Below are positions 47 through 43,206 of a DNA stretch of 43,206 nucleotides, in pieces. This DNA is from a virus (Duplodnaviria > Caudoviricetes). The notes beneath the pieces are model-generated. The model ran no database searches, was not told the origin of the DNA, and saw nothing but the letters and a program-made list of their open reading frames with translations. Position 1 is the first letter of the stretch, and every line of letters starts with the position of its first letter. The stretch lies in IMG/VR virus record IMGVR_UViG_3300049070_000134, positions 1-43,206 of that record; one strand, written 5' to 3'. The translations under genes and the position numbers were made by a program.

Positions 47-75
47 AGTATGGCCTGCCGGAGGGCAGGAGTCAA
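47..75 (-). promoter_or_regulatory. sigma70-type promoter pointing out of the left end
   Basis: Minus strand TTGACT-17 nt-CATACT just after the last gene's stop; spacer contains palindrome CCTGCC-N4-GGCAGG. Confidence 0.55.
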
Positions 76-11166: not shown

Positions 11167-11714
11167 GCTTGAATCTCCTGTACCGCACGGCGCTGATGCC
11201 GACGGGATGTGAGCTTGCTGCGCTGATCGAGGATGAACCGCCTCTTCGCGCTTCCGCTCGTTGCTACGTCATTGCACTCCTGGTGCGCGCTGCAGAGGCG
11301 CTTTCCGGTCGCCTCAGCCGCCCTTAGAACCCCTTCACGCCTGCAGGCGACGCACGAGCCATCCGTGCCATCCGCCTCCAGCACAACCGCGAACTGTCGT
11401 TCGATCTGCTGCCTCGTGGCTCCTCGGGAAGCGATGGCTTTCTGGAAGATGGATCGCCATCCACGGACCATCCACGTCCCGCCGGTGCCAAGCTGAGTGA
11501 ACTCCGGCACTGCACCACGCCGGAACGCACAGATCTTCTTCCCGATCTTCGGCGGGCCGAGCCACAAGCACGCCACGTTGTACGACGTCGTCTCAAGCTG
11601 GAAGGACAGGTTGATCTTCCTCAGCCCGTTGATGATCTGCGTGTCCGTGAACTCCTTCCCGAACATGCTGTCCGCATCCTTCGGCGCGACGCTCAGATAT
11701 GTCTTTGGGAGCAT
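11148..11714 (-). CDS. Hypothetical protein with Cys/His metal-binding motif
   Basis: CVAC...LCSAH near a basic C-terminus; coupled to neighbours. Confidence 0.65.
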   Translation of the reverse strand: MLPKTYLSVAPKDADSMFGKEFTDTQIINGLRKINLSFQLETTSYNVACLWLGPPKIGKKICAFRRGAVPEFTQLGTGGTWMVRGWRSIFQKAIASRGATRQQIERQFAVVLEADGTDGSCVACRREGVLRAAEATGKRLCSAHQECNDVATSGSAKRRFILDQRSKLTSRRHQRRAVQEIQACLSGQ

Positions 11715-12463
11715 CAGCGTGCCACCACGATGCGGGGAATCTCCTGCTGCGCTTCAATGCCCTTCTGGTACGCGCCGATCATCATCCGCGCGACCGTCAG
11801 CAGGTCCAGCTTCTTCCGGTGGCCCCACTTCACGCCAGTGTGGCAGCCGACTCTGTATCCGAGCGCCCCTGCACGCTCGCAGAAGTCCACATCCTCCGTC
11901 GCAAGCTCATCCCCGTTCGATCCCCGCTCCGTGCGGAACAGCGGCGGAGCCAGAGGATCCTCCACCGTGTCGAGCAGCATCCGACTGTCCTCCAGAACTG
12001 CCCGCTTGATCAGCGTGGCTCCCATCATGACCGCGTCACAGGTGACAATGGGATTCCCTTCGTCTGGCATTGGATCGCACTGCCATCCATCGCCGTCCTT
12101 GTGGTACACGCCGAAGGTCAGCGAGGGCATACGGTCCGGGCCGTGGTACTGGAAGGCAGGGTACACACCTCCGACGATGTCATACCTCTCCAGCAGCAGC
12201 AGCAACTCGAAGCTATTCGCCGACGGGCGGGTGTCCTGGTCGATGAACCACAGCACATCTGCCTCGGAGGCAAGGAACTCCCCCGCGAGGCAGTTCCGCG
12301 CATGCTCGACGGTGCGCTTGCCATTCAGCCTCCGCGTCTGGAATGTCCACGGCGACTTCTCATGGCAACTCATCAGCAACGCCGCCTCGCACAGGTCGGC
12401 GATCTCATTCGTCACCTGCGAGTCCGTCGTCGGGATTGCGATTAGTACCTTCGTCTTGTCCAT
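11714..12463 (-). CDS. GT-A fold (GT2-like) glycosyltransferase
   Basis: VLIAIPT, ARN, WFIDQD (DxD), EDVDFC, terminal GH motif; AGGAGG RBS. Confidence 0.85.
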   Translation of the reverse strand: MDKTKVLIAIPTTDSQVTNEIADLCEAALLMSCHEKSPWTFQTRRLNGKRTVEHARNCLAGEFLASEADVLWFIDQDTRPSANSFELLLLLERYDIVGGVYPAFQYHGPDRMPSLTFGVYHKDGDGWQCDPMPDEGNPIVTCDAVMMGATLIKRAVLEDSRMLLDTVEDPLAPPLFRTERGSNGDELATEDVDFCERAGALGYRVGCHTGVKWGHRKKLDLLTVARMMIGAYQKGIEAQQEIPRIVVAR

Positions 12464-12547: not shown

Positions 12548-13489
12548 TTAGCCGATTCCAGTCGCGTCCGAGACCATCTCGACGAAGCGATTCGCGTCGA
12601 TCATCTCAGAGGCAAACAGGAACCAGTAACCAGCAGTTCCACGATTCCGCAGCGGGGCACTGACCAGCGCTTCCGGCTCCGTGATGATGATCCTCGGGGA
12701 GAGGATATCCGACTCCAGCGAGGAGACGCCGAACGCGTCCTTCCCGAGCAGGTAGCCGTAGTCATCATCCGGCGACGTCGAAGTCACGCGGACCAGATTC
12801 GTCGAGATCTGCATAATGCAGTTATAGATCGCCGCCGTCGGGACAGTGTCCTTCAGGGGGCTGACCATACTCGAAGAGAGCTGATCCGTACGAGCCTGGA
12901 ACCACGCAGGGGCACCTTCGCCAAGGATGTCATAGCACTGCTCCACGGAGCCGACGAAGATGAAGAACTGTCCGCCGGGCGACTTCGGATGCGGCTGCGC
13001 ATTGTTGCCGAGCAGTTCAATAACTGCCTTGCGCAGGCCCTCAGCCGTCATGGCAACACCTTCGTCGTTCGTGTTCGTCGCGTCCTGCAGAGCGCTGTTG
13101 TTGATGACGAGGTCAATACTCGTCGCAGCCTTCTGCGCCAGACCCTTCACGAACTCCTCTCTCGTCCCGCTCATCGCGGAGAGATCGAGGAACTTGCTGT
13201 AGTCCGTGTACGCGCCGTACTCCGCCAGAGTGGCGGTGATCGGCGTGGTGGTGAAGTCCGTGGTCGCGCCCGGATCCGCACCCTCAGTGATGGTGGCGGT
13301 GGAACCCGACGGATTGCTGAAGAAGTTCCAGCGAATCGTCTTACCATCATGACGCGGGATATCATCCCGACGTCCAAGGGGAGCGAACCGAACCTTCTCA
13401 CGGAGCACCTCGACGAACGTCGCGGCATCATGCTCAGTGGAAAGGACATTGGTACCGAGGTTGCTAGTACCTGTTCCCATCCTAGCCAT
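12548..13489 (-). CDS. Major capsid protein (N4-gp56-like)
   Basis: 313 aa; GKTIRW, ITEG, TLAEYG motifs; directly after scaffold gene. Confidence 0.88.
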   Translation of the reverse strand: MARMGTGTSNLGTNVLSTEHDAATFVEVLREKVRFAPLGRRDDIPRHDGKTIRWNFFSNPSGSTATITEGADPGATTDFTTTPITATLAEYGAYTDYSKFLDLSAMSGTREEFVKGLAQKAATSIDLVINNSALQDATNTNDEGVAMTAEGLRKAVIELLGNNAQPHPKSPGGQFFIFVGSVEQCYDILGEGAPAWFQARTDQLSSSMVSPLKDTVPTAAIYNCIMQISTNLVRVTSTSPDDDYGYLLGKDAFGVSSLESDILSPRIIITEPEALVSAPLRNRGTAGYWFLFASEMIDANRFVEMVSDATGIG

Positions 13490-19013: not shown

Positions 19014-19531
19014 TTAGGCAACCGATCTCCCTCCGGTTTCGACCCACCGAGGAACTGCGCTGCCGCAGCATCGTCAGTAATGGCGATGTCCTCCTTCCTC
19101 GCACGAGTCGCGAGCGCTTCCTTGTCGGAGCGCCCGACGGTGTCGAGCGTGATGCGAGCCGCCGTGTTGGCGTCCGCAGGCTTCAGCTTACCGAACCAGC
19201 AATTGCAATCAGCGTATCCATGCTCCGGATCCGGCGGTTGCAGCGATCTGCACCAGTCGTTGTGCTTCTCCTGCTGGTTGCGTTCGAGCGTCCGTCGCGC
19301 CAAGTCGACGAGCAGTTCCCACGAAGCAGCCTTCTCCTGCAGGGTGCCGAGGACAGCGTCTGTGATGCGACGGTTCGCCTTCAGGCGATCCACCTCGCCG
19401 TCCGGGTCGCTGTAGCCAGCGGCGCGGGCAGCGGACACCCAAGACTTCCCTCGACGCAGTTCCTGCACGACGATCTGCTGCATCGGCGTCAGGTCGTCGA
19501 GGTCGCTGACGTTGGCGTGACGGTTGCTCAC
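19010..19531 (-). CDS. terS: Terminase small subunit
   Basis: LTPMQQ...AARAAGYS HTH typical of TerS; directly upstream of TerL. Confidence 0.8.
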   Translation of the reverse strand: MSNRHANVSDLDDLTPMQQIVVQELRRGKSWVSAARAAGYSDPDGEVDRLKANRRITDAVLGTLQEKAASWELLVDLARRTLERNQQEKHNDWCRSLQPPDPEHGYADCNCWFGKLKPADANTAARITLDTVGRSDKEALATRARKEDIAITDDAAAAQFLGGSKPEGDRLPN

Positions 19532-37446: not shown

Positions 37447-37724
37447 AGTTCCTCCTTCTGGAAGTCTCCTGCATTGATACGCTCCTTCACGTGTACTTCG
37501 CAATCATTCAGCCGACGGATGATGCTCTCGATGGCCGAGCCGACCTCGTCGTCGATGGTACTGAGGGCAGCGAGAGCTGCCAAGCCACCCGACTCCACCA
37601 GTGTACGGCTGATGATCGTGGCTTCCCCGCTTGTCAGCACGAGCTGCGGGCCGCCGCTGTATTTGATGACTCGCTTCGTGACCTGCAGGCCAGGATGCGC
37701 CTTGATAAGCTCCAACGGATCCAT
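37443..37724 (-). CDS. Hypothetical protein
   Basis: 93 aa, GGAGG RBS. Confidence 0.7.
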   Translation of the reverse strand: MDPLELIKAHPGLQVTKRVIKYSGGPQLVLTSGEATIISRTLVESGGLAALAALSTIDDEVGSAIESIIRRLNDCEVHVKERINAGDFQKEEL

Positions 37725-37981
37725 GCTTCCTCCATCCCGGACCAGTTTCCCTGCAACCGCCGCCGGGTCAGCGAGTTGGAGGGCGTTTCGGTGATTTCAC
37801 CCCTCCCCCCCCACCCCACCCTGGGGGTGTCGGAATCGCGTTCCGGACAGCCGGGGTGAGGCAGGGATGGGGATGGTGCCAGACGGACCCCAAGGGCTTG
37901 GGGGCTTGCGCGACGGGGGCAGTTGGTACTACCTTACCGTCCTAAGCCGATGTCTGTCTGAAGACTGGCTGCCGAGCCAGT

Positions 37982-42143: not shown

Positions 42144-42311
42144 TCAGAGCTGCTTGGTCCGCTGCGGGATGATCTCCTGCACGACCACCTTTTCGAAGTT
42201 GTCGCCCTCGGCGATCTCCTTGCAGGTCGTGGCGAGAGTGGTCAGCGCCTCGTTGCGCTGGGCCGGAGTCATCTCCTTGTCGTTGATCGTGAAGACAGCC
42301 TGAACCCTCAT
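42144..42311 (-). CDS. Hypothetical protein
   Basis: MRVQAVF..., GGAGG RBS. Confidence 0.6.
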   Translation of the reverse strand: MRVQAVFTINDKEMTPAQRNEALTTLATTCKEIAEGDNFEKVVVQEIIPQRTKQL

Positions 42312-42390
42312 GTGGAACCTCCATGCGCTCCTGTCCGGGAGCATCGGTTCCTGCTGGACGCAGGCTTCGGGAGCGAGGATGTTGGTTACG

Positions 42391-42537
42391 TTATCTGGCG
42401 ACGATTTTCAGCGTGATGGTCTTCGCGCCACAGAGCCCGCTCTTCATGGACAGATTCCACTCATGGATCTCAGGCAGCGTTTGGGTCTCCCGTTCGATCA
42501 GAGCCAGGACTTCGACGATGTGGACGGTGTTGTTCAT
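42391..42537 (-). CDS. First early gene, hypothetical
   Basis: MNNTVHIVEV..., G-rich RBS. Confidence 0.55.
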   Translation of the reverse strand: MNNTVHIVEVLALIERETQTLPEIHEWNLSMKSGLCGAKTITLKIVAR

Positions 42538-42758
42538 GTTCCCCCCATTCGCTCCCGGAGTCTGCGTCCCGCATTCGCTGATTGGCTCGGCGCTCCCACA
42601 CTCCGGCACGTGACCGGAGATCGGCAGGTGATGCGCTGCGCGAGCATGCGTGGTGCGCGCCTTTCGGCGCTCGGGCAGATCGGTCGTGTCGCTGATCCTC
42701 CTGGGGGATCCGGCCCCCTGTCCGGCCCCTCCGGGATCCGGGGGGCTACGCGGGGTGA

Positions 42759-42775
42759 TGCAGGGCACGTGCCAG
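42759..42775 (-). promoter_or_regulatory. sigma54-type -24/-12 element facing early genes
   Basis: CTGGCACG-TGCC-CTGCA. Confidence 0.6.
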
Positions 42776-42916
42776 CTCCGCCGGGAGGGCTTTCGCCCGG
42801 ATCGGCCCGTCGCACCGGGCTTTTCCCCGGTCCGGATTCTTCGATAGGCGAAAGCCCGTTTCGCCCCGGCTTTCGCAGGCCGTTCGCCTGAACTTTCGCC
42901 TCCGGTTCGCCTCTTT

Positions 42917-42957
42917 CGACCAGAGAAGCCGGACGGGGGCGACCAGAGAAGCCGGAC
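42917..42957. repeat. 18-bp direct repeat x2
   Basis: CGACCAGAGAAGCCGGAC at 42917-42934 and 42940-42957. Confidence 0.85.
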
Positions 42958-43014
42958 CGCGGAACCGGAACAACCGGAACTTTCGCGTGTCTAGAATCCC
43001 GGAAACCCGGACGA

Positions 43015-43192
43015 TGCAAGGCCCGTGCCTGCCTCAAACCCCCCTCTCCGCGCGGCCGATCCGGCGAACGCGAGGCGAAGGCGGGATCGCCGGACTGGCA
43101 CGCTGCTTGCATCGGGATGCAAAGGACGTGCCTGCCCGAAAGGCCGCCCGTGGCGCGGGCTTTGCGGCGGTCGCGCTGGCACGCGGATTGCA
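43015..43192. promoter_or_regulatory. Cluster of five sigma54-type -24/-12 elements in both orientations
   Basis: Minus: AGGCACG-GGCC-TTGCA (43015-30), AGGCACG-TCCT-TTGCA (43118-33); plus: TGGCACG-CTGC-TTGCA (43096-111), TGGCGCG-GGCT-TTGCG (43151-66), TGGCACG-CGGA-TTGCA (43177-92). Confidence 0.7.
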
Positions 43193-43206
43193 TGCCGGGG
43201 GGGATC

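Follow-up and report, generated by a model that had tools for sequence, protein, structure and literature searches.

Why would a phage crowd promoter sites of the sigma54 (RpoN) type into one end of its genome and encode nothing that could activate them? The question is raised by the window, the whole 43,206-nt stretch of DNA analysed here, which is the genome of an uncultured podovirus-like phage. All of its called genes lie on the minus strand, and they include a family A polymerase, terminase, portal, capsid, tailspike and internal virion genes. Six -24/-12 sites ahead of the first small genes had been reported in the first-pass annotation, which had suggested that they gate early transcription on a host activator, act as a decoy or roadblock for sigma54-RNA polymerase, or assist genome entry.

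Scored against the consensus TGGCACG-N4-TTGCW, the window yielded six GG-N10-GC sites, all within its last ~435-450 bp (Table 1). These are the six sites already listed, with the first ending at 42774 and not at 42775, and they include the convergent pair 43096+/43118-, whose half-sites face each other across the described gap of 6 nt. With at most one mismatch, five sites fall in the last 667 bp vs none in the remaining 42,539 bp. Dinucleotide shuffles of the region (N = 2,000) gave a mean of 0.002 sites at this threshold (maximum 1, observed 5) and of 0.04 sites with at most two mismatches (maximum 1, observed 6), and the enrichment over shuffled sequence and over the rest of the genome is upheld. 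When a matrix built from the arrays of other phages was applied, all sites but that at 43151 emerged as the top five of the genome, while the latter was outscored by stray sites at 19513 (10.4 bits) and 13450 (8.9 bits). The putative genes for the small terminase and the major capsid protein each have one of these stray sites, 19513-19528(+) and 13450-13465(+), in antisense orientation at their very beginning. All six motifs are real, and their clustering is confirmed. Three of them point toward the early genes and three toward the contig end, the latter with 84, 29 and 3 nt left; for the site at 42759-42774(-), the predicted +1 is at ~42748, 211 nt ahead of the first start codon.

Table 1. 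Positions of the sigma54-type sites and of neighboring features at the two ends of the window.
Feature	Position	Strand	Remarks
G-rich tract at other contig end	1..25	+	
Sigma70-like promoter TTGACT-17-CATACT	47..75	-	directly after last gene, pointing off contig end
Second early ORF, 55 aa	42144..42311	-	homologue of first gene after array in contig L365
First early ORF, 48 aa	42391..42537	-	no family found
Terminal region with array	42538..43206	.	70% GC; probably non-coding; terminal G tract
Sigma54-type -24/-12 site	42759..42774	-	1 mismatch; points to early genes
Sigma54-type site	43015..43030	-	1 mismatch; points to early genes; 17/17 nt identical to site in L365
Sigma54-type site	43096..43111	+	perfect; left half-site of face-to-face pair; points to contig end
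Sigma54-type site	43118..43133	-	1 mismatch; right half-site of face-to-face pair
Weak sigma54-like site	43151..43166	+	2 mismatches; 5.2 bits; least certain of six
Sigma54-type site	43177..43192	+	perfect; 14 nt short of contig end, pointing to it

The description of the array region as non-coding is likely but unproven: the ORFs that overlap it (42534-43193 and 42391-42768) have no PHROG or Pfam match. The region contains a tandem repeat of 23 nt at 42917-42962 and an excess of the words CTTTCG (6 observed vs 0.08 expected) and TTCGC (9 vs 1.4 in 42540-43206). Both words also occur in the array region of the metagenome contig L365 and possibly represent a second binding motif. Two mini-hairpins with GAAA loops are present on the minus strand around 42794 and 42665, and a 25-nt inverted repeat (88%; 42352-42376 and 42549-42573) flanks the first early ORF.

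The record is linear and has no terminal repeat. In the probable source run, contigs end exactly at 1 and 43206, at a depth of 51-59 and without overlap, which would place the array either at a true terminus of the molecule or where the assembly broke off in a G-rich tract. Near-identical pieces were found in several soil metagenomes; coverage of the array region in other soil runs is little or zero and, as such, uninformative. At the opposite end, the sigma70-like promoter at 47-75(-) has a small inverted repeat in its spacer and no gene between itself and the contig end, and it would read toward the array in a circle or concatemer. Another intergenic gap, in the early/middle region (37724-37929), has a G-rich tract and no clear promoter. 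Across the genome, sigma70-like matches number nine, about what is expected by chance (1.4 per 7.2 kb), which leaves the proposed sigma54-to-sigma70 transcription programme unsupported.

Arrays of this kind extend far beyond this phage. A strict face-to-face pattern retrieved 15 stretches from IMG/VR, several of them with 7-13 sites, and a relaxed pattern an estimated 620 (extrapolated from 13 of the 64 IMG/VR parts, from which 126 stretches were fetched). A mis-spaced control with one extra spacer base (N5) matched 1 IMG/VR stretch, and a variant in which the two half-sites share one TTGCAA matched 2. Among prokaryotic genomes (GTDB, 596 Gb), 23 stretches were found with a stricter pattern, which is matched as well by 100 of the 126 fetched viral loci. 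These 23 are mostly short MAG contigs, and some of them encode terminase, scaffold, primase or integrase, according to a scan of 38 ORFs drawn from 20 loci in genomes and 2 in metagenomes. Face-to-face clusters are thus common in unrelated phages and rare in bacterial genomes.

The 141 viral loci group into 82 clusters, possibly an overcount, as 46 loci have short flanks only. The gap between the half-sites is 1-6 nt in 72 of the 82 clusters, with a mode of 2, and is never 0; within 300 bp, 61 clusters hold 3-9 sites. Positions that the search had left free match sigma54 as well: among 164 half-sites, T is found at -26 in 87% and C or T at -27 in 75%, in agreement with the extended consensus YTGGCACG..TTGCW. 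A hairpin, a single-strand promoter or origin (N4-type, ssi) or another structured RNA is ruled out because the spacers are less complementary than shuffled ones (79 vs 101 of 328); in the window, the fold of 42540-43010 is no better than that of shuffles (z = -0.57), and the array region has no Rfam match. Together with the recurrence and with the absence of the activator family PF00158 from all 44 array-bearing records scanned, the free positions show that the observation of sigma54-type sites without a phage activator, made on one genome, holds far more widely.

Where long flanks are available (54 clusters), the pair lies outside any ORF of at least 150 aa in 45, and G/C tracts occur nearby in 20 vs 8.5 expected. 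In 15 of the 82 clusters, the pair is no more than 1 kb away from a contig end (7.9 expected, P about 0.009). Among the matches listed, several large phages have sites scattered over 5-10 kb and away from any end position; the early regions of such phages contain these sites repeatedly, near anti-restriction genes. As to individual arrays, L366:5750-6036 packs ten sites into 290 bp, with one of them facing back against a tandem series of nine, and a terminase and portal from a different packaging family lie downstream. At L014:3070-3335, four sites precede GC-rich short tandem repeats, which are located at the end of the contig.

Among 20 cultured phage records, hand-picked and not a random sample, six carry arrays, namely five Pakpunaviruses and Vibrio phage VpV262. 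The closest parallel to the window is VpV262, in which six sites at 173-346 include two face-to-face pairs. This array lies 35-208 bp inside of the annotated 138-bp terminal repeat (1-138) and ahead of the first gene at 1034, with four of the six sites directed toward the early genes. The Pakpunaviruses were reached through one array locus that belongs to this group and matches 135 Pseudomonas phage records; among them, PAK_P1 has its array at annotated termini. In Ab1, six sites lie within identical 1153-bp end repeats, and three more, a face-to-face pair included, at the other edge of the early region. The terminal repeat of phage Adele, 1165 bp by PhageTerm (PMC12846349), also holds six sites. 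Four sites are kept in all five Pakpunavirus repeats aligned, while two or three others, inside an HNH gene, are variable. Internal sigma54 clusters in PAK_P1 (55190-55760, between two divergent sigma70 promoters) and PAK_P3 (50570-51050) adjoin short direct repeats and possibly mark a replication origin.

No array was found in the other 14 records: T7, phiKMV, LUZ24, Felix O1, phiEco32, rV5, YuA, CVT22, 1.157.O, RIO-1, GP100, ICBM2, P12053L and PAK_P3. PAK_P3 has two perfect sites ahead of its early region, GP100 has one at base 265, and the remaining twelve have none. The feature is therefore dispensable for many phages. A blastn comparison of the arrays with cultured phages gave nothing useful, and TerL, primase and RNA polymerase of four array loci have distant cultured matches only.

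The window phage itself has no close cultured relative (TerL at most 27% identical over long alignments); a capsid search for relatives found nothing, and none of the candidates scored is homologous to its last gene, 79-2184 (701 aa). The first 15 array records were considered as its clade and rejected, as they gave one weak partial match. Conservation in related contigs is seen for the early module. Contig L365 has two early-region proteins in common with the window (57% and 45% identity), and its first gene after the array resembles that at 42144-42311 (18 of 50 residues identical, 36%; pairwise E = 3e-6). The L365 array consists of four perfect sites, three of them directed toward the early genes, and includes a face-to-face pair 81% identical to that of the window. 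For the packaging module at family distance, conservation fails: two near-complete phages with 47-50% identical terminases have isolated sites and no array. In the search for terminase relatives, two broad profile scans were swamped by distant matches and yielded one true relative, and a narrower pattern yielded two. One relative, G016, has the same structural module as the window with the replication/early arm inverted, and carries two copies of a homologue of the ORF at 11714-12463.

What binds these sites is very probably the host's own sigma54-RNA polymerase. Host sigma54 is the simplest binder because the activator family was found in none of the 44 array-bearing records and the sigma54 DNA-binding domain (PF04552) in none of 16. 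In the window genome, too, PF00158 and any GAFTGA-like word are absent, in line with the earlier remark that the phage has no activator. Repeats of 16 bp that occur in both orientations next to a genome end are a usual feature of terminase sites, such as lambda cosB. The arrays resemble such sites and lie upstream of terminase genes, and they could be repeats that merely look like sigma54 sites and are bound by a phage protein, a small terminase or a replication protein. We consider this most improbable: unrelated podo-, myo- and sipho-type phages have the same full consensus down to its free positions, no small protein, remote homologues aside, is common to the window and five array-bearing phages (two compared only in part), and no RpoN-box word was found in 180 sequences, as no PF04552 was in the 16 records.

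If sigma54-RNA polymerase binds, the sites could be true early promoters that are fired by a host enhancer-binding protein and thereby gated by the state of the host, with the pairs serving as bidirectional promoters. The observation behind this idea, sites at a genome end without a phage activator, stands, and a host-supplied activator is possible. Three window sites, three of four in L365 and four of six in VpV262 point to early genes; the stretch from the array to the first gene of the window is free of a sigma70 consensus; and the early-region sites of large phages near anti-restriction genes, among the matches listed, fit as well. Use of host sigma54 has been reported for the lytic phage YuA, with one sigma54-type promoter, P015 (PMC10914365), and cross-resistance of PAO1 rpoN mutants to LPS-binding phages has been described and attributed by its authors to altered receptors (PMC6188897). 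Against gating, three of the six window sites are directed at the contig end, neither a phage activator nor an IHF consensus is present in the window, and sigma70 promoters are present at the early genes of the Pakpunaviruses and PAK_P3. For PAK_P3, the start list of PMC10914365, made in one growth condition (LB) and in coordinates that agree with the sequence record, has no entry between 48439 and the sigma70 start at 51049, and thus none at the two perfect sites. Bacteria use sigma54 promoters, yet they seldom build the face-to-face geometry. In addition, rpoN is not among the 13 genes listed for the JG004 transposon screen of ~30,000 mutants (PMC3120641), and any role is therefore probably inessential there. 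Gated promoters are thus the weaker branch of the original proposal and, in our assessment, rather unlikely.

We tentatively prefer to see the array as a platform of mostly silent sigma54-RNA polymerase closed complexes at the early end of the genome, an anchor or boundary and not the main early promoter. This preference starts from direct observations: the sites are present and enriched, they recur at annotated termini, and neither an activator nor a sigma54 homologue was found in the phages. The closed complex of the sigma54-holoenzyme distorts the DNA beyond -12 and cannot proceed without an activator (PMC3844500, PMC5505868), and most sigma54 sites of E. coli are bound but silent (PMC4591121). 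On the phage arrays, host polymerase would likely form stable and mostly non-transcribing complexes of this kind, silent without an activator, as is established for sigma54, and the end on which it is parked is predicted to enter the cell first. A face-to-face pair would accommodate one polymerase at a time, because its two -12 elements are only 3-8 bp apart and because each site covers the melting region of the other. Least certain of all, the bound complexes might anchor or protect the end as it enters and keep read-through out of the early region.

The suggestion of a strict roadblock has been weakened. Single intragenic sigma54 sites had no roadblock effect in E. coli (PMC4591121), and PAK_P3 reads pass the first site, with 3' ends at 50872 and 50897 (PMC10914365). 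One PAK_P3 read end, at 50787 and next to a site, was considered as a sign of a roadblock and dropped, as other reads end at those two positions. The missing roadblock effect in E. coli and the PAK_P3 read-through also count against the silent platform, as do the array-less terminase relatives, the 14 array-less cultured phages, the spread sites in large phages, the modest excess of pairs at contig ends and the absence of rpoN from the JG004 list.

A parked polymerase might instead mark the concatemer junction for terminase and for duplication of the repeat, in place of the paused phage polymerase of T7 and T3, which at the concatemer junction recruits gp18/gp19 (PMC3276506). Among the clusters with long flanks, a gene for the terminase large subunit was found within 5 kb in 18 of 54, and the array is upstream of it in all 18 (counted from the nearest ORFs of at least 280 aa, 69 proteins scanned; some of these terminases look related). 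The early region of these genomes also begins on the upstream side of terminase. The VpV262 array starts 35 bp inside of the repeat, and the gene-less sigma70-like promoter of the window is aimed at the junction; yet the array is absent from the two terminase relatives and present in the early-module relative, the internal clusters of Pakpunaviruses and large phages lie far from ends, and the L014 phage carries an array although it encodes its own T7-type RNA polymerase. A packaging landmark is, overall, unlikely.

Lower still we place a decoy that titrates sigma54-holoenzyme and damps host sigma54 responses while the phage genome replicates. It would need neither activator nor downstream gene, and several near-consensus sites per genome in both orientations would suit it. 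A decoy leaves the terminal or early position unexplained, and the narrow gap of most pairs would make their sites mutually exclusive, so that we regard it as quite unlikely. The silent platform is accordingly ranked first, ahead of gated promoters, the packaging landmark, the decoy and, last, a site for a phage protein.

With the sigma54 promoters of bacteria (PMC3844500, PMC5505868), the arrays share GG-N10-GC with exact spacing, YT and W flanks and an intergenic location. Unlike these promoters, the phage sites are packed in both orientations and in face-to-face pairs 1-6 nt apart, the activator gene and the IHF consensus are absent, and half of the sites face no gene. Likely occupancy of consensus sites without transcription is a further likeness, to the silent sites of E. 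coli and Salmonella (PMC4591121, PMC3844500), where a sigma54 site that overlaps another promoter leads to repression. Those chromosomal sites are single and mostly intragenic, whereas the phage sites are clustered, intergenic and located at ends or in early regions. Similarly, YuA P015 is a single internal promoter, unlike the window array, and our own scan found no terminal array in YuA.

By analogy with T7 and T3, the arrays would place an RNA polymerase just inside of the left terminal repeat for a role beyond mRNA. The early promoters of T7 and T3 that are used by host polymerase have a role in genome entry. In contrast to what is proposed for the arrays, T7 transcribes actively with sigma70 and its own polymerase, and no sigma54 site was found in the T7 scan; a sigma54 closed complex, unlike the T7/T3 polymerases, is immobile without an activator. 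VpV262 has been placed in the T7 supergroup (PMC6775973).

The motif itself is of a known kind, while its packing, geometry and terminal position in phages are apparently undescribed in the literature searched. Within that literature, chiefly open-access papers, no description of such arrays was found; mention of the motifs may exist in the original reports on VpV262 and YuA. The accessible sections of PMC6775973 note only GC-rich repeat ends, and those of PMC3634792 and PMC5563952 do not address termini or sigma54. Sigma54 hardly features in accounts of phage biology: apart from the one YuA promoter, the same literature gave one predicted sigma54-like protein in a phage, and not sites (PMC7693777).

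An array that recurs in viruses and is rare in bacteria implies an overlooked dependence on the host, including in the Pakpunaviruses that are studied for therapy. If the sites fire, lytic phages would read the nitrogen or envelope state of their host at the very outset of infection. Silent complexes, in contrast, would give host polymerase a new function apart from transcription, in entry, end protection or packaging. It is quite possible, if still tentative, that a cis-element for recruiting the host's locked sigma54-RNA polymerase arose independently in hundreds of unrelated tailed phages, to serve at their ends as a structural device for one of these purposes, without transcription. Were that true, it would be an unrecognised use of a sigma factor, one that marks termini and sigma54-bearing hosts from sequence alone. 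Because arrays occur in culturable phages with genetically tractable hosts (e.g., those like PAK_P1), the question is testable now. Either way, the motif would help to place genome ends and to narrow down the hosts of uncultured phages.
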